This document shows, piece after piece, positions 43,967 to 53,894 of a DNA stretch of 64,000 bases (within the stretch, counting starts at the first letter, position 1; the number at the start of each line of letters is the position of its first letter). Position numbers and translations under genes: made by a program. The notes beneath the pieces are model-generated. The model was not told the origin of the DNA. It ran no database searches and saw only the letters and a list, made by a program, of their open reading frames with translations. Source of the DNA: an archaeon (GTDB lineage Archaea; Nanobdellota; Nanobdellia; Pacearchaeales; GW2011-AR1); the NCBI GenBank assembly GCA_018651925.1, contig JABIDC010000009.1, positions 16,403-80,402 on the forward strand, read 5' to 3'.

Positions 43967-45148
43967 ATGTTGCTTGAAATTTTTTTATTTTTAATTCTGG
44001 GAATTTTTTTTGGAACAATAACCGGATTAATCCCCGGAATCCACATAAACCTAATAGGGATCATTTTAATTTCAATTTCCACGAAATACCTTTATGTTAA
44101 TCCAATTTATTCTATTGTTTTTATAACTTCAATGAGCATAACCCACACATTCGTAGATTTTATTCCTTCAATTTTTCTTGGATGCCCCGATACAGAAACA
44201 GAACTCTCCATTTTACCGGGCCATAAATTATTAAAAAAAGGACACGGATATGCTGCAGTAATCTTAACAAACAAAGGGAGCATTGCAGCAACAATCCTTT
44301 TTACAGTAATAGCTTTCCCAACTATTTTAATAATTTCAACCCTTTCTCCCCTTATTGAGAAAATAATTCCTTTTATTTTAATTATAATTTCTTTTCTTTT
44401 AATACTAAAGGAAAAACAAAAATCAATTGCATTAGAAATTTTCTTAATCACTGGTATCCTTGGATTGATAATCTTTAATTTAAATATTGAAAATTCTCTT
44501 CTTCCCCTCTTAACAGGGTTATTTGGTTCCCCTCTTTTAATTCAAAGCATAAAGAAGAGAACAATAATCCCGAAACAAAAAATAATAAACCCAAAAATTA
44601 AAATAAAAAAACCAATCTTAGGTTCTCTTCTTGCTTCTCCCTTCTGTAGTTTTTTGCCAGGAATCGGTGCAGGACAAGCAGCAATAATCGGAAACTCGCT
44701 GATAAAAACAAATAGAGATGGATTCTTAATTTTACTTGGAGCAACAAACACTTTTGTAATGTGTTTTTCTTTTCTTTCTCTTTATGCAATAAACAAAACA
44801 AGAACCGGTTCTGCCCTTGCAATAAAAGAATTATCAAACTCCCTTTCTCAAGAACTCTTAATTTTAGTACTTTTAACAATCTTAATCTCAGGGATAATCT
44901 CTTTTTTTCTAACAAAAAAATTAACAAAAATGATTTCTCAAAAAATAACTAATTTTAATTATACAAAAATTTCTATAACCACTCTTTCAATTTTGATTTT
45001 AGTTGTCTTTTTTATTACAAGCCTCAAAGGAGTGTTGATTTTTACTGCAGCAACTTTAATTGGATTATATTCTACAAAATATAAAATAAGAAAAACTAAT
45101 ATGATGGGTTGTTTGTTAATTCCAACAATTTGGATTTACCTTTCTTAA
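43967..45148 (+). CDS. TctA-like / DUF112 polytopic membrane protein
   Basis: It has at least 10 TM helices with GLIPGIHINL and FLPGIGAGQAAIIG motifs typical of the family. Confidence 0.5.
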   Translation: MLLEIFLFLILGIFFGTITGLIPGIHINLIGIILISISTKYLYVNPIYSIVFITSMSITHTFVDFIPSIFLGCPDTETELSILPGHKLLKKGHGYAAVILTNKGSIAATILFTVIAFPTILIISTLSPLIEKIIPFILIIISFLLILKEKQKSIALEIFLITGILGLIIFNLNIENSLLPLLTGLFGSPLLIQSIKKRTIIPKQKIINPKIKIKKPILGSLLASPFCSFLPGIGAGQAAIIGNSLIKTNRDGFLILLGATNTFVMCFSFLSLYAINKTRTGSALAIKELSNSLSQELLILVLLTILISGIISFFLTKKLTKMISQKITNFNYTKISITTLSILILVVFFITSLKGVLIFTAATLIGLYSTKYKIRKTNMMGCLLIPTIWIYLS

Positions 45149-48100
45149 AACCACTTATCAATACTTTCTTGTTTTTCCAACTCTTTTCCAAAAATACTAT
45201 CAATATAACTTTTAATTAGTTCCAAATTCTGCTTCATATAAGGAGACAAATTATAATTCTTAGCCAAGTTTAAAGCGGGTTCCAGATATTTTTTAATTCC
45301 CCCTTCATGAATTGTAAAAATTAATTTTCCCTTACAAAAAGGACAAACCCCTGTTAAAGGAGGGCGCCTGGCAATTTCATTACAAGAAACACATCGAAAT
45401 CCTTGCATGGAAAATTTTCTTAGATTTCCCCTCATGTCTCGAATAAAATGTCTTGAAATAATTAATCTTGCAGTATCTGAAGTGTCTGCAGCCCGAATTC
45501 TCTCAACAAGTTTCATTTGATGTTCAACTTTTTCCTGCATTGTTCCAAGAATTTTATAATTTGAGCACACAACAGCCTCATTAAAATTATCTGTATCATG
45601 AGTAAATCCAACGCCAATAAAAGGATCTCCTTCTTCCTTCAAAATGTGCTTAACAGTGTGAACATTTGCTTTTGAAGAATGCTCCCTTTTTTCTGCTAAA
45701 CGATACATTTCCAAAGGATATTCATTAACATATTCGAAATCCAAAATTTGATCATCAACCTCTCCTGCATCAATTTTTGCATTTAACACTAAAGGGGCAT
45801 CTTGAGTTCCACCACGATGACTAGGTAAAAATTTTCTAGAAAAATTCAAAATCACATCAGACAAAAGCATAATTGCAGCTTCATCCCCATCACAATCTCT
45901 TCGAATTGCAGCATGCATATAAGGGCTTGCCAAAAGCCCCAGAGTATTTGAAAAACCAATAAATCTGCAAACAACCCCCGCACAATTATGGGGAGCCATA
46001 CAAACCCCCATCTGTCCAACTACATCTTCTCTTTTTTTTAAGTTATGAAAACGGGGCAATTTGTAAAATCTTTCCAAGAGGTCATCCACAAAATTACAAA
46101 TATTAAAGAAAACATCATCTGCCCTCTCATCAGGAGTTTCAGGAGAACTAGGAAGCAAAACATCATGGGGCTTTAATTCTAAAATTTGATTATTATCAAT
46201 TAATTCCTCCCCATAAATATCTGTTAAATATCCAAGCTCTTTTAATTTTTCAACACCCACGGAAATTTCTTTAGGCTTAAATGAAACAAGAGGCAATTCG
46301 GTACAATCAAAACGGATAGTCCCATCTTTGTTTACCTGAAGATTATGTTTTGCTCGAAGAATTCCTTTAGATAAATGTTCCATTTGTTTTCCTTCAGAAG
46401 AAGTTCCACGAATTCCTTTTATCAATAAAGGCACATCTGTTTTCTTAAACCCAATTTTCTCTATTGCTTTTTTAAAATAATGATTGATATCCAAATCCTG
46501 AAAACAATATGGAGTTCCTTTTTTCTCACAACCTTCTAATTCTTCATTAAAAGATTTTTCCTTGGATTCATAAAAATAATATTTCTTTTGTGTTTTTTCA
46601 TTGCATTCTTCACAGATTTTGTAAATAGATTCTTTTTTACATTTATCGCAATAATATAAAGGAAATTGTCCTCTAATTTTTCCTGCATCACAAGCAGTTT
46701 GAATACTTCGGAGACGTCCTCCTTCCTTTGCAACAGGAAATAAAACATTCGGACTTCCAGTCAACTTACGAAGTTTTGCTTTTTCTGGGCGCCCCATCCT
46801 CGATCCAATAAAATCTCCAGCCTTATCTTTAATTTCTATTTTCGAAACAGAATTGATCATTTCTAAAATTGTTTCTCCCACATAAAGTTCTTTTTCTCCA
46901 ATAAGAGGCAAATTAATCTCTTCTTCCAAATCAATTCCGAGGTTAAATAACAAAGCACGACTAAGATCTTTTGAAATCACCACATTCTCAATGGTAACTT
47001 CGTGAGGAATTCCCAAAAGTTCTAATGCTCTTTTTCCTAAAATAAATTCTTCTTTTTCGACTTTATTATAGGGTAAAATTAATTTGTCTTCAAATCGAGA
47101 ATGTTTCAACCAATCAACTAATCCAAAAAATTGTTCTTTAGAAATCTCTGTCCAATAAAAAATAAATTTAGGGTAAAGAGGAATTCCGAAAGTTTTACTT
47201 AAGGAGATAGCTTCACCTAAAGAGACCTTTGAATAATCTTCAACTTCTCCTCCTTTTTCTTTTAATTCCAAATTCCACCATTCTTCCACATATCCTGGTT
47301 TAATCAAATCTGCATTACGATTAGCTAGGTCACTAAAAGGAAAAAGCAAGTCCCCCAAATAAATGATTTCTTCTATTTCTTTGTAAAGTTTCCTTGTTTC
47401 AGCAATGTTTTTTACTTGCATCACCGAACCATTTTTTAATTTTACAATTGCAGCTTCAATAGTATCACAAGGAGTCGCAACCATTCCTTTTGTGGGCTTT
47501 TCAATTTTTAATTGAGTTCCAGTTGCAATAAAATCATCTGTTACAGCCATTGTCGCAGGATGAATTGAGGCCGCACTAAATCCAGAAACCCTTGAACGTC
47601 CATAACGAAAACGAAATCCTCCAGACATAGAAGGATGCCCAAAAATAGGACGTCCAGCAACCAAATCTTTAATATATGTTGGAACCCCTCCTCCGGATTT
47701 TCCTTTTTTTCCAGAAGTCATCTTTTCATGTAATTCCAAATAATCTTTGATAAAATCAAAACCCGTTGCAACAACCCCATTAGAACGAGCCATATTGTAA
47801 AGACGAAATCCTTTAGCTGCTTTCTGTGCCAAACCTTCAGCCATAATCAAACAAAACCCACTTCTAAGATTATTTGTATTAACTCTTTCTAAATTTTTAT
47901 AATTTGAAACTTCTAATTTTTCTGAAGGATCCCCTCCAATTTGAATTGGCATATTTTTTGCTAAAAATAATGCTTCTTGTTCCAGAGGCATATATTGCAA
48001 ATTAGTTATTCTCTCATGAAAATCAGACAATTCTGTCCAAACACGTTTAACTTCATCTTCAGTGGGATCATATTTTGCAAAACCAAATTTTTCTCTTAAA

Positions 48101-48615
48101 AAGTCTATTAAAAAAAGAACTATACAACTTGCAGTAGTTCCTGCGCTTCTTATTGGCCCAGAAAAATTTGCAAGAATATATTCCTTCCCATCATTTGTTT
48201 TACAAGCTTCAATTCCAGTATATCCCTCAATCGGACTTGATACAACTCCCAAAGTGGCATAAGCAAATCCTACTCTTATTCCCGCATCCATTGCTTCCAA
48301 AACGCTTGTAAATTTGCAAAATTTTTGATCCGAAACTTCTTCTGCAATTTTGAAAACAACAGTAGTATCTAATTTTCCATACATTTCTTCAAACTCCAAA
48401 ATACGTTCAGCAATTCCGGAATTTAACATCTGAGGATAAATCGTAGAAATCAATCCTACAACTTTTTCCGCCATACTCATAGCAATGGGAATTTCTATTT
48501 TATCTACAGGATCAAGACCAGTAGCTTTTGCCTTTTCAGCCATTGAATAAACAACATCTACCTCTTTCTTCAAGTTTTCAAAATACTCTGTTGTTTGTTT
48601 TGTTAATTTTACCAT
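45145..48615 (-). CDS. dp2: DNA polymerase D (Pol II) large subunit DP2, intein-free
   Basis: The protein is 1156 aa. The N-terminus YFENLKKEVDVVYSMAEKAKATGLDPVDKIEIPIA is typical of DP2, several Zn-finger Cys clusters are present (CDKCKKE...CEEC, CVSCN...CPFCKG), and it lies adjacent to DP1. Confidence 0.92.
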   Translation of the reverse strand: MVKLTKQTTEYFENLKKEVDVVYSMAEKAKATGLDPVDKIEIPIAMSMAEKVVGLISTIYPQMLNSGIAERILEFEEMYGKLDTTVVFKIAEEVSDQKFCKFTSVLEAMDAGIRVGFAYATLGVVSSPIEGYTGIEACKTNDGKEYILANFSGPIRSAGTTASCIVLFLIDFLREKFGFAKYDPTEDEVKRVWTELSDFHERITNLQYMPLEQEALFLAKNMPIQIGGDPSEKLEVSNYKNLERVNTNNLRSGFCLIMAEGLAQKAAKGFRLYNMARSNGVVATGFDFIKDYLELHEKMTSGKKGKSGGGVPTYIKDLVAGRPIFGHPSMSGGFRFRYGRSRVSGFSAASIHPATMAVTDDFIATGTQLKIEKPTKGMVATPCDTIEAAIVKLKNGSVMQVKNIAETRKLYKEIEEIIYLGDLLFPFSDLANRNADLIKPGYVEEWWNLELKEKGGEVEDYSKVSLGEAISLSKTFGIPLYPKFIFYWTEISKEQFFGLVDWLKHSRFEDKLILPYNKVEKEEFILGKRALELLGIPHEVTIENVVISKDLSRALLFNLGIDLEEEINLPLIGEKELYVGETILEMINSVSKIEIKDKAGDFIGSRMGRPEKAKLRKLTGSPNVLFPVAKEGGRLRSIQTACDAGKIRGQFPLYYCDKCKKESIYKICEECNEKTQKKYYFYESKEKSFNEELEGCEKKGTPYCFQDLDINHYFKKAIEKIGFKKTDVPLLIKGIRGTSSEGKQMEHLSKGILRAKHNLQVNKDGTIRFDCTELPLVSFKPKEISVGVEKLKELGYLTDIYGEELIDNNQILELKPHDVLLPSSPETPDERADDVFFNICNFVDDLLERFYKLPRFHNLKKREDVVGQMGVCMAPHNCAGVVCRFIGFSNTLGLLASPYMHAAIRRDCDGDEAAIMLLSDVILNFSRKFLPSHRGGTQDAPLVLNAKIDAGEVDDQILDFEYVNEYPLEMYRLAEKREHSSKANVHTVKHILKEEGDPFIGVGFTHDTDNFNEAVVCSNYKILGTMQEKVEHQMKLVERIRAADTSDTARLIISRHFIRDMRGNLRKFSMQGFRCVSCNEIARRPPLTGVCPFCKGKLIFTIHEGGIKKYLEPALNLAKNYNLSPYMKQNLELIKSYIDSIFGKELEKQESIDKWF

Positions 48616-50195
48616 TATTCAAAATCCAAAATTTTAATTGCCCTTGTTTTAAGATTAAACATAGGAATTTTACAATGATCTGGCTCATTTCCAAATTTTT
48701 CCTGATAAGGAGTTTTAGTTTCCCAAGAAGATGAAGAAATAAGTAAAATATTATTATAATAAACAACTGCACTTTTGTGAGTATGGCCTGCAACAAAAAT
48801 ATCTGGCACTTCCTTAATTATATGGCAATCTTCTTTCCCAGGGAAATATTGGACTGAAGTGTGAGAAGGAGCAAGATGTCTTTGTTTTAATAAAAATTCC
48901 ATAATTCTTTCAGGAGTATTCATAGATTTTTTTAACATTAACTTTGAAACAGTATTAGCATAATAAGGAAATGAAAAACCATGATAACCCAAAACATTAT
49001 ATCCTCCAAACCCAGATTTTGCCCCAATATTAACTGTCGAAGGATTTTCCGTAAAAATTATGTTTTCAATATTATAAAGAGGCCAAGCATATTTCTCATT
49101 CAACAATGGCTGGGGTTCCATTAGCCGAACACAGTCATGATTTCCGGGAGAAAGAATAATCTTTATGTCTTTTCTAACTGTAGATAATATATCTGCCAAT
49201 TCGCTAAATTGTTGTTCCAAATCAACTACAAGCAGATCTTTCTCTTGATTAGGATAATTTCCCACCCCGGTAATCAAATCCCCAATAAAAAAAACATATT
49301 TTATTTTTTCAACTTCTGGAGTATTCGGAACTTTTCCATTCAAATAATCAATAAAAGAAAGGAAATTTTCTTTCATAAAATTTTTACTTCCATAATGTAA
49401 ATCTCCTAAAAATAAAGCATATTCCTCTACAGGAGATTTTTTTCGTTCAAAAAGAACAGAATCCGGAAAAATTACTTCATTACAAAATAAAATTTGATCA
49501 TTTCCCGAACACTTAAACCCCAGAACAGAATCAAGAACAATGTCTTCTGCTTTCTCATATAAATCCTCTTTATTTTTATTAATGAGAATTTTAGTCTTGC
49601 CAGTTAAATCTTCTATCTCCAAAATAATATTCCCATTTTTGGTCACAGATCTTGAAGAAACAATCCCAATCACTGAAATCCCCTGATTATTTTTGGCTAA
49701 TTTATTTAAAGAAACAAGATTTTTTAAATCGGAATGTTCAAGCAAAATGTTCCTCATGGAAACAAAACGATTACGAAAATAAGTAACAAAATCTTTTACT
49801 ACTACTTTTTTATCACTTGCCAAACTTTTAGAAATAATTCTCACGTCATTAAATTCTCTTTCTTTCTTGATTGGAATTAATTGAGTTTCTTTAGTAATTT
49901 CTATGCTAAGCCCTAATTTAATTTTTAACTTTTCTAATTTTCTTTGGTTCTCTTGAGGTAAAATTGAAAAAAAACTATTTACTTGTTCACGATTTTGAAG
50001 AAAAACTTGTTTTGTGATAATGCTATTTGAAGTAGAATGTTTAATTTTCTCTAAAATAAATTTAATAGATTCTATATCTTCAATTTCACTAAATAACCCT
50101 AACATTTCTTTATCTACCAACAAACCCTTCTCTAAACAAAACTTCAATAAATTTTCAGATCCCATCAAATTAATTATATCCCAAAGATTCTTCAA
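48615..50195 (-). CDS. dp1: DNA polymerase D small subunit DP1 (calcineurin-like phosphoesterase/OB)
   Basis: Phosphoesterase motifs GDLHYGS, FFIGDLITGVG, SPGNHD and AGHTH are present. The alternative start Met at 50165 would remove the overlap with orc1. Confidence 0.88.
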   Translation of the reverse strand: MKNLWDIINLMGSENLLKFCLEKGLLVDKEMLGLFSEIEDIESIKFILEKIKHSTSNSIITKQVFLQNREQVNSFFSILPQENQRKLEKLKIKLGLSIEITKETQLIPIKKEREFNDVRIISKSLASDKKVVVKDFVTYFRNRFVSMRNILLEHSDLKNLVSLNKLAKNNQGISVIGIVSSRSVTKNGNIILEIEDLTGKTKILINKNKEDLYEKAEDIVLDSVLGFKCSGNDQILFCNEVIFPDSVLFERKKSPVEEYALFLGDLHYGSKNFMKENFLSFIDYLNGKVPNTPEVEKIKYVFFIGDLITGVGNYPNQEKDLLVVDLEQQFSELADILSTVRKDIKIILSPGNHDCVRLMEPQPLLNEKYAWPLYNIENIIFTENPSTVNIGAKSGFGGYNVLGYHGFSFPYYANTVSKLMLKKSMNTPERIMEFLLKQRHLAPSHTSVQYFPGKEDCHIIKEVPDIFVAGHTHKSAVVYYNNILLISSSSWETKTPYQEKFGNEPDHCKIPMFNLKTRAIKILDFE

Positions 50196-51381
50196 CTATT
50201 TCTTTAGCCTTTGCCAAAATATTAATTGGAATCACAAGTTTAATTTCCCTCATTCTTCCACCCCTTCCTTTTGAAATAACCCTAACATTAATAATTCCCA
50301 ACATATCAAATTCTTGAATTATATCTCCTACTCTTCGTTGAGTTAAAATTTCTGATTTAAGATCTTTACAAACTTCTTGGTAAAAATTATAAACATCCCC
50401 TGTAAACATTGGGTTTTCCTTATTTTTCTCTGAGAGCTTAATAATTGAATATAAAACTAATTGAAATTGTTTTGGTTCAGTCTTAATAACATCTAAAATT
50501 TTATCTCTTTCAATTTTATTATTTGCTTCATCTATATGTTTTAAAGAAACATTTTCAGAAGTATCTCTTTCAGCCAGTTCTCCTGCAATTCTCAAAAGAT
50601 CTAAGGCCCTTCTAGCATCTCCATGTTCTCTTGCAGCATATGCGGCACACTTAGCAATAACTCCTTTTTCCAAAATTCCCTCCTTAAATGCCTCCTCAGA
50701 ACGTTTATTTAAGATGTCTTGGAGTTGAAGAGCATTATAGGGGGGGAAAACAATTTCTTCTTCAGATAAAGAACTTCTAACTCGGGGGTCTAGTTCATCT
50801 AAAAAAGTTAAATTATTACTAATTCCTACCATACAAATTTTAGTTTGAGAAAGTTCAGAATTCAATCTAGTTAAATTATACAAAAAATCATTTGATATTT
50901 TCTTTACTGTTTGATCAATTTCATCCAAAATTAAAACAATTAATTGTTTTTTTTCATCAATCAACTCAATAAATTTACTATAAACCGATTGGGTGGGCAA
51001 CCCCGTTGCAGGAACACTTCCCCCTAATTTCTTAATTAATTCAGCTAAAATACGATATTCAGTATCTGAAACTTTTTTTAATTTACAATTCAAATATTCT
51101 ATCCTTAATTCAAAATCATTCTCTTTCTTATTTCTCTTCAACAATTCTTCTTTAATATATTGAATCGAAAGAGTTTTTCCAGTCCCAGTTTTACCATAAA
51201 GAAAAAGGTTACTTGTTTGTTCTCCTCTTAAAACAGGAGCAAGAATTGAAGCTAGCTGTTTTATTTGATCTGTTCTATGAATGATATTCTCTGGTTTATA
51301 ATTTATTTGTAAAAGAGATTTATCTTTGAAGATTGAATTCTTATCAAAGGAATCAAATATTTCATCTATTTCTAAACTCAT
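50170..51381 (-). CDS. orc1: Orc1/Cdc6 replication initiator
   Basis: It has AAA+ Walker A LYGKTGTGKT, Walker B LDEID, the sensor region GDARRALDLLR, and a C-terminal winged helix. Confidence 0.93.
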   Translation of the reverse strand: MSLEIDEIFDSFDKNSIFKDKSLLQINYKPENIIHRTDQIKQLASILAPVLRGEQTSNLFLYGKTGTGKTLSIQYIKEELLKRNKKENDFELRIEYLNCKLKKVSDTEYRILAELIKKLGGSVPATGLPTQSVYSKFIELIDEKKQLIVLILDEIDQTVKKISNDFLYNLTRLNSELSQTKICMVGISNNLTFLDELDPRVRSSLSEEEIVFPPYNALQLQDILNKRSEEAFKEGILEKGVIAKCAAYAAREHGDARRALDLLRIAGELAERDTSENVSLKHIDEANNKIERDKILDVIKTEPKQFQLVLYSIIKLSEKNKENPMFTGDVYNFYQEVCKDLKSEILTQRRVGDIIQEFDMLGIINVRVISKGRGGRMREIKLVIPINILAKAKEIVEESLGYN

Positions 51382-51410
51382 TTTTTTATATTTTATTTAA
51401 TTAATTAAAT

Positions 51411-51442
51411 CTCTCCCCCACCATCATTTCTCCTGGAGAAGT
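51411..51442 (-). promoter_or_regulatory. ORB-like Orc1-binding element 1
   Basis: The reverse complement reads ACTTCTCCAGGAGAAATGATGGTGGGGGAGAG. This is a dyad (TCTCC-W-GGAGA), then AAAT, then a G-string, resembling the archaeal ORB consensus (TCCAGTGGAAA...GGGGG). Confidence 0.55.
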
Positions 51443-51462
51443 TATATTTATTATTATTTATT
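51436..51462. repeat. Left arm of a perfect 27-bp inverted repeat
   Basis: gagaagttatatttattattatttatt is the exact reverse complement of 51725-51751. Confidence 0.9.
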
Positions 51463-51564
51463 GAATGAAAAAAATGTTTTTATTATATAAAAGATTATGA
51501 CTACTAAAAAAGAATTACTCCTTTATTTCCTATGGAAGATATATTTTTATTTTTTAATTATTTT

Positions 51565-51588
51565 CTACTACTACTACTACTACTACTA
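51565..51588. repeat. (CTA)8 trinucleotide microsatellite
   Basis: The sequence reads directly as ctactactactactactactacta. Confidence 0.95.
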
Positions 51589-51662
51589 TCTATATACTCT
51601 ATAATATAAATTTTATTAAAGAAAAAAAGAACTAGCAAAAATCAAATTTCTTTTAATAAATC

Positions 51663-51686
51663 TTTCCAAACGAAATCAAGGGGGGA
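51663..51686 (+). promoter_or_regulatory. ORB-like Orc1-binding element 2 (inverted relative to element 1)
   Basis: TTTCCAAACGAAATCAAGGGGGGA has a half-dyad, GAAAT and a G6 string. Its orientation is opposite to element 1, across the AT-rich core. Confidence 0.5.
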
Positions 51687-51724
51687 CAGAGTATAAATAA
51701 TAATAATAATAATAAATAATAAAT

Positions 51725-51751
51725 AATAAATAATAATAAATATAACTTCTC
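51725..51751. repeat. Right arm of a perfect 27-bp inverted repeat
   Basis: aataaataataataaatataacttctc is the exact reverse complement of 51436-51462. Confidence 0.9.
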
Positions 51752-51818
51752 TTTAAAATAAAAGATAGTTATCTCTCTTCACAGATAACTTTATAAATTA
51801 TTTTAGTTTAAAAAAAAC

Positions 51819-52079
51819 ATGCAAAGCGAAAAAAACCCTTTTAGTATGATTTTAGGAAAAATGATTGTAACTAAAGAAGGAAAAAGATTAGGTTTTGTAA
51901 AAGACATTACTTTTGAAACAAATTCGGGAGAATTAATTAATTTAGTAGTAAAAGACACAACTTCTTACACTAAAAATCTTAATTTAGAAAGAACTCCTTC
52001 AAAGGAGGTTTTAATTCCCTATAGTGCAATAATTGCAATCGGAGATTTTGTGATTATTTCTGAAGAAGATTTGCTTTAA
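51819..52079 (+). CDS. PRC-barrel domain protein
   Basis: ILGKMIVTKEGKRLGFVKDITFETNSGELINLVV...VLIPYSAIIAIGDFVIIS matches the PRC-barrel pattern. Confidence 0.65.
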   Translation: MQSEKNPFSMILGKMIVTKEGKRLGFVKDITFETNSGELINLVVKDTTSYTKNLNLERTPSKEVLIPYSAIIAIGDFVIISEEDLL

Positions 52080-52129
52080 TTGAATTTAAACATATAAAAA
52101 TTTAAAAAGGAAAATCAAATTAAAATAAA

Positions 52130-52537
52130 ATGAAACTAGTAGGATTTAATTTCAACAAAATAAGTGTAGAGAAATCAAAAGAAAAGAATGAAAAAATAAA
52201 AATCTCTTCAAATATTGAAATAGCTGAAATAAAAGAAGTTGTTTTAAAATTAGTTGATTCAAAAGAAAAAATATTGAATGTCTCTTTTTCTTATTTATTA
52301 AAATATGAGCCAGATTTCGCAAAAGTAGAGTTTGAAGGTTCAATTTTACTTTCTATAGAAGAAAAAATGGCAGAAGAGATATTAAAGAAATGGGAAGATA
52401 AAGAAACAGCACAAGATTTCAAATTAGCTGTACTTAATGTTATCTTCAAAAAATGCAATGTAAAAGCATTACAATTAGAAGAAGAATTGAATCTTCCTTT
52501 CCACATGCCTATGGCGTCATTGAAATCTTCAAAATAA
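52130..52537 (+). CDS. Hypothetical protein (135 aa)
   Basis: This is an ORF with a plausible start. No family was recognised. Confidence 0.45.
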   Translation: MKLVGFNFNKISVEKSKEKNEKIKISSNIEIAEIKEVVLKLVDSKEKILNVSFSYLLKYEPDFAKVEFEGSILLSIEEKMAEEILKKWEDKETAQDFKLAVLNVIFKKCNVKALQLEEELNLPFHMPMASLKSSK

Positions 52538-52809
52538 TCTTTTATTTTAAATCAAATTTAATCATACTAATAAATTAAATTATTTATTTTTTGATTAAAA
52601 CCTTTTTTTTCTTTATTTGAATTTTCGGGGTTTACCAAGAAAATATTTTCTTCTTAGAATTATTCTATTCGGATGGAGGAGAGTCATAATTCTTATCTCT
52701 TTTTAAAATATTTAAAATTTGTGAAGGGGTTTGATCCATAGACAAAAAAAAGTTTTAATCAAAATTCACAATTCAATAATTTTAAAAAAAACAATCTTCT
52801 TATTCTTTT

Positions 52810-53076
52810 ATGAAAATTTCAAAAGAAAAGAGAGAAAAGATTTCCGAACAAATTTTATCTCTTCTTTATTCATTAAATCCTCAAGCAATTTTTACATCAA
52901 ATATCGCAAAAGAGTTGGCAAGAGATGAGGAATTCACAAAATCTCTTCTATTGGATTTAAAAGAAAAAAAATTGATCTTAGAAATCAAAACAAATCCCAA
53001 AGGAATCAATTATCTGAGACGCGCTAGATGGAAATTATCCAAAGCAACATTTGAAGCTTACAAATCATTTGGTTAA
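52810..53076 (+). CDS. Small winged-helix DNA-binding protein (88 aa)
   Basis: ISEQILSLLYSLNPQAIFTSNIAKELARDEEFTKSLLLDLKEKKLILEIK looks like a wHTH (MarR/ArsR-like) fold. The assignment is by pattern only. Confidence 0.45.
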   Translation: MKISKEKREKISEQILSLLYSLNPQAIFTSNIAKELARDEEFTKSLLLDLKEKKLILEIKTNPKGINYLRRARWKLSKATFEAYKSFG

Positions 53077-53129
53077 AATATGTTTTTTATTATATTAAAC
53101 CTTTTATAGTGGGGAGGATTTGGTGATTT

Positions 53130-53894
53130 ATGGATTCCATAAAGGATGCTTTTCTAAAAGTAAAGAAAGATATTGATTTATTAAAGAATGAAAGGGAGTT
53201 TCTTAGGTTAAATTTAGCAGAATTAAAGGATGAAATGGCTTTTCATCGTAAGGAAATTCTCAAAATAAACGAATTTTTAGAAAAATTGAATGAAAAAAAG
53301 GTTTCCACTGGAAACCAAGGGGTTTCGACACTTCGACAGATAAATCCGTCCTATTCGGAGCAAAATTCGACAGATAATTGGGATTTTAAGCCCCTAAATG
53401 CTCAATATCCAACACCTTCCACTGGAAATGAAGGAGTTCCAGCAGACAGACAGACAAACCAACAGACACACAGACAGACAATAAATTATCCTCTTTCGAG
53501 GGAGTTTGATTTAAATAAAAAAAATCCTCCAAAAATAAGCGCTTCCGAACCCCCGGAAAATGGTTTAGAAAATGCTATAGAAATCCTTGATTCATTAGAT
53601 AATTTAAAGAAAGAAATCCGTTTGAAATTTAAACGTTTAACTGAGCAGGAATTGCTTGTTTTTTCTGCAATTTATCAATTTGACGAAGAAAAAGGTTATT
53701 CTAACCATAAATTGCTCTCAAATCGGTTAAATTTAACTGAGAGTTCTATTCGAGACTATGTTAGTCGGTTAATTAAGAAGGGAATTCCCCTTGAAAAATC
53801 AAGGGTGAACAATAAATCTATTCGGCTTTCAATCTCTCCTTCTTTGAAGAGAGTTGCAACCCTTTCCACCATTTTACACCTAAGAGATCTTTAA
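53130..53894 (+). CDS. Coiled-coil plus C-terminal HTH protein, paralog-like of 54092..54715
   Basis: It has an N-terminal heptad region, a linker with duplicated STGN(Q/E)GV and (x-Q-T)n motifs, and a C-terminal LTEQELLVFSAIY...LTESSIRDYVSRLIKKG wHTH-like segment. Confidence 0.55.
   Translation: MDSIKDAFLKVKKDIDLLKNEREFLRLNLAELKDEMAFHRKEILKINEFLEKLNEKKVSTGNQGVSTLRQINPSYSEQNSTDNWDFKPLNAQYPTPSTGNEGVPADRQTNQQTHRQTINYPLSREFDLNKKNPPKISASEPPENGLENAIEILDSLDNLKKEIRLKFKRLTEQELLVFSAIYQFDEEKGYSNHKLLSNRLNLTESSIRDYVSRLIKKGIPLEKSRVNNKSIRLSISPSLKRVATLSTILHLRDL

Follow-up and report, generated by a model that had tools for sequence, protein, structure and literature searches.

The 64,000-nucleotide stretch of DNA analysed here (the window) comes from a marine member of the Pacearchaeota, a DPANN archaeon with a genome of about 30% GC, and the question that it raises is whether the intergenic region of 437 bp at positions 51382-51818, called a predicted oriC in an initial annotation, is the place where this chromosome begins to replicate. 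The region, to which no strand is assigned, directly adjoins the orc1/cdc6 initiator gene, as expected for an origin of the oriC1 type, and its A+T content is 81.7%, compared with 69.1% for the whole window. From a comparison of sequences we consider that this gap is very probably (at roughly 85%) the Orc1-dependent chromosomal oriC of this marine archaeon, and the prediction is supported by the conservation of its boxes in relatives and by a change point of strand bias at position 51,241.

The gap carries three origin recognition boxes (ORBs) beside orc1, and all three combine the canonical TTCC...GAAAT dyad with a G-rich tail. ORB-a (51414-51441, minus strand) reads CTTCTCCAGGAGAAAT-GATG-GTGGGGGA, with its G-string directed toward orc1; ORB-b (51513-51540, minus strand), which reads ATCTTCCATAGGAAAT-AAAG-GAGTAATT, has the same orientation and repeats ORB-a directly at a distance of 97-99 bp; and ORB-c (51661-51688, plus strand), which reads TCTTTCCAAACGAAAT-CAAG-GGGGGACA, is inverted with respect to the other two and has a conserved flank upstream of it (51636-51660). 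The repeated TTCC...GAA core contains the two elements, 'TTCC' and 'GAA', that are perfectly conserved in published ORBs, e.g. TTCCAGTGGAA in Pyrococcus (PMC1904270), and the G-string of ORBs has been described as well (PMC1868953). Two of the boxes had been located in the initial annotation, box 1 at 51411-51442 (reverse complement ACTTCTCCAGGAGAAATGATGGTGGGGGAGAG) and box 2 at 51663-51686 (TTTCCAAACGAAATCAAGGGGGGA); both were found in place, and they correspond to ORB-a and ORB-c. The middle box had been noticed through TTCCTATGGAA at 51527-51537, which is present, but the label of 'mini-ORB' given to it has to be dropped, the site being a full ORB and the best consensus match of the window. 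These matches were scored with a lineage matrix of 28 nt, built from 71 orc1-proximal sites of relatives, none of them in the orientation of ORB-c. The scores were 27.2 bits for ORB-b, 12.7 bits for ORB-a and 12.5 bits for ORB-c, and a scan of both strands of the 64-kb window above 8 bits returned five matches, namely the three boxes and two sites within a gene at 53.3-53.4 kb that are treated further below. In addition, the pattern TTCCNNNGGAAAT has 3 matches in the window, against 0.55 expected.

Conservation of these dyad and G-string boxes upstream of orc1 in related genomes had been set beforehand as a test of the prediction. For this purpose 80 related loci were fetched, nearly all of which show an equivalent gap of 270-950 bp with a divergent neighbour gene; 78 gaps were used for a k-mer count, 57 gaps were complete, and 71 loci had enough flank for the evaluation of box pairs. 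The k-mer search, which was unbiased, recovered TTTCCTATGGAAA from 34 loci and TTTCTTATGGAAA from 30, with fewer than one expected, and the same count also yielded ACTACTAAAAAAG, AAAACACC and GAAATCAA. Two direct ORBs were present in 70 of 71 loci at a spacing of 96-100 bp (mode 98); read toward orc1, both consist of TTTCCAYARGAAAT, a 4-nt spacer and a G/T-rich tail, and ORB-a ends 0-144 bp before the orc1 ATG. The ORB-a of the window aligns with the orc1-proximal ORB of the relatives, TTTCCAYARGAAAT-nnnn-GTGTGGGG, with a half-site that is CTCC in this species and an invariant TTCC in the relatives. The inverted ORB-c, with the consensus TTTCYATAMGAAAYMAAGGGGTGRGG following AAAAnTTTCTTTTTAAA, was found in 42 of the 57 complete gaps by a strict count (a looser listing gives 43 loci), and both this box and its flank are conserved although the matrix had not been trained on that orientation; in the metagenome contig L114, the sequence and layout of box 2 are identical to those of the window. 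Across the related loci, the density of matrix matches is 5.2/kb inside the gaps and 0.12/kb outside them, a 45-fold difference. Judged from these alignments, the three-box layout is conserved in about 70 related species, with the same order outward from orc1: ORB-a, a 70-bp module, ORB-b, an A/T-rich spacer, the inverted ORB-c, about 100 bp, and the promoter of the divergent PRC-barrel gene.

The gene context of the gap agrees with its assignment. The neighbour on the left is orc1/cdc6 itself (50170-51381, minus strand, 403 aa), recognized by the Pfam families Cdc6_C, Cdc6_lid and AAA and by NCBIfam TIGR02928 at 424.8 bits; its product has thousands of homologs at 76-83% identity, and those that are named belong to Pacearchaeota or Nanoarchaeota. 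Downstream of orc1 are the genes of the small subunit of PolD, DP1 (48615-50195, minus strand; Pfam DNA_pol_E_B and Metallophos), and of the large subunit, DP2 (45145-48615, minus strand; Pfam PolC_DP2_N, central and cat). The claim that this gene order is that of the Pyrococcus oriC locus was therefore borne out, the domains in Pfam and NCBIfam confirming the succession oriC-cdc6-dp1-dp2. The gap itself is not an assembly artefact, because at least 8 independent assemblies, obtained from different samples with MEGAHIT, SPAdes and at JGI, carry it without a single difference.

The second line of evidence is the strand bias, which was computed on the window and on 37 kb further right on the same 174.7-kb contig (about 100 kb in all). 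The maximum-likelihood change point of the bias at four-fold sites lies at 51,241 (2-lnL interval, in units of log-likelihood, 50,157-53,564; lnL gain 87.8), some 140 bp away from the gap. To its left the bias is strong in genes of either orientation: with values expressed on the plus strand, plus-strand genes have a GC bias at these sites (GC4) of -0.23 and an AT bias (AT4) of +0.27, and minus-strand genes have -0.31 and +0.19. Each of the six left bins has a G+T fraction of 0.37-0.41 on the plus strand at these sites, and the minus strand is the G+T-rich one, as expected of a leading strand that starts at the gap. The six right bins give 0.48, 0.56, 0.46, 0.52, 0.53 and 0.54. An inflection of the skew at this locus had also been set beforehand as a test, and the outcome is divided, for the step is there, at 51,241, but it goes to about zero, with a weak reversal, and does not form a clean V.

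Several observations weigh against the assignment of the gap as oriC. Over the 49 kb to the right the G+T fraction is 0.515 (p = 0.037 versus 0.5), compared with 0.388 on the left, so that no clear reversal is seen. Neither does gene orientation switch at the locus, the minus strand carrying 77% of the coding DNA on the left and 68% on the right, and the big ribosomal-protein operons on the right point toward the gap. Furthermore, two of the three boxes of this species match the lineage matrix weakly (about 12.5 bits), and the median score of the sites on which the matrix was trained is 33.6 bits, versus 12.7 for ORB-a. Concerning the one-sided bias, a recent rearrangement or acquisition on the right side is possible, as is an unequal use of the two forks.

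Alternatively, the boxes might be operators or promoters serving orc1 and the PRC-barrel gene, which point away from each other here; a transcription factor, or an Orc1 that is a repressor only, would bind them, and replication would start elsewhere. The boxes do lie in a divergent promoter region, with ORB-a at such a short distance from the orc1 ATG, a conserved TATA-like element is located between ORB-a and ORB-b, skew and gene orientation lack the classical reversal, and growth with an unused ORB origin has been reported for some archaea (PMC5663688). We find this alternative quite improbable, since the boxes fit the ORB consensus in both the dyad and the G-tail, the change point of strand bias falls on this locus, and an inverted pair surrounds the least stable DNA of the window, an arrangement that is the defining anatomy of origins in all characterised archaea (PMC1868953, PMC12141716). 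The assignment of the gap as an Orc1-dependent origin is therefore preferred in what follows.

The boxes had been described as inverted around an unwinding core of about 220 bp. Box 2 is inverted as stated, box 1 forms a direct repeat with the middle box, and the 70 bp between these two are a conserved module and not DNA free for unwinding. In a motif-anchored alignment of the relatives, the whole module extends over about 130 bp and, in the orientation of the window, is made up of a C-string, ATTTCCTATGGAAA (ORB-a), about 25 nt, CAACGAGAAAAA, TTATTATATAAA, four variable bases, TTATRACTACTAAAAAAGAAAAACACC and finally ATTTCYTATGGAAA (ORB-b). Two elements stand between the direct boxes. One is the TATA-like element TTATTATATAAA (51480-51491, no strand assigned), a counterpart of which, TTATATAAA with at most one mismatch, lies between the direct ORBs in 63 of 70 loci; it may serve as orc1 promoter or as an element of the origin. 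The other is an invariant motif, TTATRACTACTAAAAAAG, that we call the B-box: it does not resemble an ORB, abuts ORB-b as TTATGACTACTAAAAAAG (51495-51512, plus strand) and occurs as an exact copy once in the window. The motif ACTACTAAA was found in 36 of 78 gaps, with 1.2 expected, and the B-box with up to two mismatches in 59 of 70 loci. Across the order, the B-box is conserved to the same degree as the ORBs. A small protein gene starting at 51498 (MTTKKELLLYFLWK, with CTA and TTA both coding for Leu) was also considered for this segment and rejected: the B-box is not a start codon, because its ATG is ATA in most relatives, and the presence of TTTCYTATGGAAA twice at a fixed spacing of 98 bp likewise rules out a small open reading frame.

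Because the 70 bp between ORB-a and ORB-b belong to this conserved module, the duplex-unwinding element is likely limited to the 120 bp between ORB-b and ORB-c (51541-51660, 85% A+T, no strand assigned) rather than extending over the whole 220 bp, and the dyads of these two boxes face each other across it. Duplex stability in the 64-kb window is lowest within the gap: among 100-nt stretches the minimum is at 51697-51796, followed by 51535-51634, and among 60-nt stretches it is at 51692-51751. Both microsatellites of the initial annotation were recovered with Tandem Repeats Finder, the (CTA)8 run at 51565-51588 and the (AAT/AAAT)n tract, which had been placed at 51694-51744 and was delimited as 51693-51742 (no strand assigned). 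Such sequences are common at this place in the relatives, where the spacer between ORB-b and ORB-c is 106-664 bp long, unalignable and rich in trinucleotide microsatellites. Microsatellites with at least six copies of 2-4-nt units reach 0.88/kb in the gaps versus 0.05/kb outside; they are mostly (AAT)n, with up to 28 copies, and lie mostly between ORB-b and ORB-c, and one relative carries (TAG)23, the same unit as the (CTA)8 of the window. A low-coverage contig of the same species, L113, has (CTA)9 instead of (CTA)8. Of 78 representative Pacearchaeota contigs, 22 stop inside the gap, as does every one of the five contigs from the closest relatives, often within long runs of the (AAT)n type, e.g. 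(AAT)28 in L033 and (AAT)18 in L003, and the frequent breaks of assemblies just upstream of orc1 are thus explained by these long microsatellites in the unwinding region.

By analogy with the oriC1 of Sulfolobus and the oriC of Pyrococcus, Orc1 monomers would bind each box with a fixed polarity and distort the DNA, and MCM would be loaded between the inverted pair formed by ORB-b and ORB-c, on the A/T-rich spacer. Since ORB-a overlaps the promoter or 5' region of orc1, it probably lets Orc1 repress its own gene, and the B-box next to ORB-b would be a probable site for an accessory factor, conceptually similar to the ucm/UBP pair of Sulfolobus.

Another aspect of the gap is a perfect 27-nt inverted repeat, whose left arm (51436-51462, plus strand) overlaps the outer half of the ORB-a dyad and whose right arm (51725-51751, minus strand) lies between ORB-c and the PRC-barrel promoter. 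It had been reported as overlapping box 1 and lying beyond box 2, and the two arms are indeed 100% complementary. They are the only copies in the 64 kb, even with 3 mismatches allowed, and none appeared in 100 shuffles; under an order-2 Markov null for the gap, the longest perfect inverted repeat did not exceed 14 nt. In the 57 complete gaps of relatives no comparable repeat was found, the longest perfect inverted repeat having a median of 11 and a maximum of 17 nt and being of low complexity. It should be added that 15 of the 27 bases fall in (ATT)n in the left arm and in (AAT)n in the right one, two repeats that are inherently complementary, so the informative part is GAGAAGTTATAT. In the closest relative, whose Orc1 is 99% identical and whose gap has diverged by about 10%, the left arm, the only one compared, reads GAAAAAAGATAT... 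and differs at 5 of the 12 non-repeat bases; its ORB-a (TTTTCCAAGAGAAAT) is nearer to the consensus than that of the window (CTTCTCCAGGAGAAAT). As judged from these comparisons, the repeat is real, confined to this species and not a feature of this type of origin. An assembly artefact was rejected, since the MEGAHIT, SPAdes and JGI assemblies from different samples agree over the whole gap. A comparison with public contigs, made in search of variants of the arms, yielded fragments and cross-matches of low complexity only.

The repeat is probably a recent mutational by-product. The complementary (ATT)n and (AAT)n tracts would first have given rise to a quasi-palindrome; a template switch or a conversion could then have lengthened it by 12 bp, at the cost of half the ORB-a dyad, which was overwritten. 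That this happened recently and within the species is indicated because the relatives lack the repeat, the closest one differs at the five positions mentioned, and its ORB-a is nearer to the consensus. If the repeat were instead a functional part of the origin, its arms could pair in unwound or supercoiled DNA, as a cruciform or as one hairpin per strand, in a structure bracketing ORB-b, the unwinding element and ORB-c. This is an unlikely interpretation, in spite of the perfection of the repeat inside such a fast-evolving gap, a length far beyond chance, its invariance in at least 8 assemblies, the presence of its stem in both the minimum-free-energy and the centroid single-strand fold (z = -2.0), and the precedent of G-rich inverted repeats that, beside ORBs, enhance oriC1 of Haloarcula hispanica (PMC4010727). 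Its absence from all 57 complete gaps, the natural complementarity of more than half of its bases and its degrading effect on the ORB-a consensus speak against a function, the copies of the same species are all identical, so that no sign of maintenance is seen, and contig L113 has the left part of the gap without the right arm. It is likewise doubtful that such a structure regulates firing or brings ORB-a next to the far side, as it could do if it were functional. One could also take the arms, which are perfect, of terminal type and enclose 262 bp of A/T-rich DNA, for the terminal inverted repeats of a small non-autonomous mobile element (a miniature inverted-repeat transposable element, MITE) inserted beside orc1. 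This reading was rejected as practically untenable: the interior is the conserved core of the origin, whose succession of TATA-like element, B-box, ORB-b and ORB-c is shared by about 70 species, no target-site duplication is present (the outer flanks are TCCTG and TTTAA), and the window holds no further copies of the arms. The by-product interpretation is therefore the one that we retain.

The two matrix matches outside the gap, which are the only ones in the 64-kb window, are ORB-like sites at 53300-53327 and 53414-53441 (plus strand; 18.2 and 17.0 bits), both within a gene (53130-53894) for a coiled-coil/winged-helix protein of 254 aa. They encode STGNQGV and STGNEGV, each followed by a (GACA)n-like tract, and are located in the linker of the protein. 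An equivalent intragenic site exists 1.8-2.5 kb from orc1 in 53 related loci, with the DNA consensus ATTTCCACTGGAAAT-nnn-GGGGTTCCAACAGAC(AGAC)n, in which an ORB with its dyad and its G-string (a GGGG tail) precedes a (GACA)n tract whose in-frame translation is TDRQ. Codon choice in these sites is frozen at synonymous positions: TCC encodes Ser in 53 of 54 sites, versus a background of 5-11%, and GGG encodes Gly in 51 of 54, versus 19-23%; CCA is likewise the codon for Pro in 32 of 33 cases, ACA for Thr in all 48 and GAC for Asp in all 50. Such fixation of rare codons indicates that the DNA sequence itself is under selection. The winged-helix family has about 1,900 homologs, and all those that are named are from Nanoarchaeota or Pacearchaeota. 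Searches of the protein sequence against Pfam, NCBIfam, PHROGs and the PDB gave generic winged-helix matches only, and a pattern scan of viral contigs for an ORB of the intragenic type plus (GACA)n produced no match.

As a tentative explanation, to which we would give somewhat less than even odds, the intragenic sites may truly bind Orc1 and be maintained by selection acting on the DNA, in which case the peptide S-T-G-N-x-G-V-P-T-D-(RQTD)n would have been forced by an origin-control element upon the linker of a protein in an entire order. If this were true, initiation would be regulated or organised through a split origin region that comprises the winged-helix gene, the B-box and perhaps the neighbouring small winged-helix proteins, and the one-sided strand bias might also reflect unequal use of the forks from this origin. 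A single TTCCCAGGGAAAT dyad was found as well inside dp1 of the window, at 48835-48847, and probably reflects a protein motif. No conserved ORB was found in orc1, dp1 or dp2 of 76 related loci, and a Pyrococcus-like cluster of ORBs in dp1 was rejected for this lack of conservation, so that the locus does not have the arrangement of the Thermococcales in this respect.

On the right, the gap is bordered by the PRC-barrel gene (51819-52079, plus strand; Pfam PRC), a divergent neighbour that adjoins it in all 49 loci with enough flank. From its position, the element ACAGATAA + TTTATAAAT (51782-51798, plus strand), whose centre lies about 25 nt before the ATG, is the probable promoter of this gene, and ACAGAAAA is found about 30 nt ahead of the divergent gene start in most related loci. 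Such a distance to the ATG is typical for promoters of leaderless archaeal genes. The order of a convergent winged helix-turn-helix (wHTH) gene (wHTH2), wHTH, p88 (a small wHTH protein), p135 (of no family), PRC, gap, orc1 and DP1 is kept in at least 48 of the 49 loci; because of this conservation, the stretch at 52.1-54.7 kb is taken, on comparative grounds, as core genome and not as a mobile island. The winged-helix proteins of this neighbourhood are encoded by the genes at 52810, 53130 and 54092. Two short contigs show other junctions on this side. In L102 (688 nt, coverage about 2) the end of an unrelated open reading frame is joined to the last ~25 nt before the PRC-barrel ATG, and L113 (1547 nt, coverage about 1) matches the window up to the (AAT)n tract and continues into unrelated DNA with an open reading frame on the reverse strand; these junctions may be chimeric assemblies or a structural variant. 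Further right, ribosomal-protein operons (S13-S4-S11 and L3...L5e-S5-L30-L15-SecY) are found on the minus strand at window-equivalent positions 58-62 and 87-100.5 kb (L108, L110, L111). Scans with Rfam models and for tRNAs gave no match inside the gap, and among public RNA runs none containing the locus was found.

In the literature searched we found no description of origin recognition boxes in DPANN archaea. What the locus offers is very probably an ordinary Orc1/ORB origin in a lineage for which no published one was found. DPANN archaea are uncultured or host-dependent, and a conserved origin defined by its sequence gives a concrete handle on their replication: the three boxes and the accessory motif are usable for in vitro work on Orc1 and MCM, and the position of the origin can anchor estimates of growth rate (peak-to-trough) in metagenomes. 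New insight could come from the ORB fixed within coding sequence and from the one-sided skew, and the 27-bp repeat probably teaches little beyond a mutational process acting at an origin.

Among the characterised archaeal origins, oriC1 of Sulfolobus contains three ORBs, each bound by one Orc1-1 monomer with a defined polarity, with ORB2 and ORB3 inverted around the unwinding element, and an extra motif of 11 bp, ucm, that is bound by UBP (PMC12141716). The Pacearchaeota gap, known here from sequence alone, resembles this origin of Sulfolobus/Saccharolobus in that it adjoins orc1, has three ORBs of which two are inverted around an A/T-rich spacer of about 120-130 bp, derives its polarity from the dyad and the G-rich tail, and possesses one extra conserved motif that is not an ORB. 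It differs from it in that the B-box lies between direct ORBs and not inside the unwinding element, with a sequence unrelated to ucm, in that the length of the spacer varies and trinucleotide microsatellites abound in it, and in having a further ORB in a neighbouring gene. With oriC1 of the haloarchaea Haloferax volcanii and Haloarcula hispanica (PMC1868953, PMC4010727) it shares ORBs with a G-string and GT-rich tails around an unwinding element. In these haloarchaea, inverted repeats adjacent to ORBs can modulate activity; those repeats are G-rich and conserved in the group, whereas the 27-bp repeat described here is A/T-rich, flanks the whole core and occurs in one species. Finally, compared with the oriC of Pyrococcus and the Thermococcales (PMC1904270), no array of many 13-bp mini-ORBs is present here, and the gene order is identical, the ORB core is again TTCCA-nn-GGAAAT, and an inverted pair of ORBs with A/T-rich regions is found in both. 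A second set of ORBs in a nearby protein-coding gene is also common to both: in the Thermococcales it is a cluster inside dp1 bound by Cdc6 (PMC1904270), which provides the precedent for intragenic ORBs, and in the Pacearchaeota it lies on the other side of the origin, in a lineage-specific winged-helix gene about 1.5-2 kb away.

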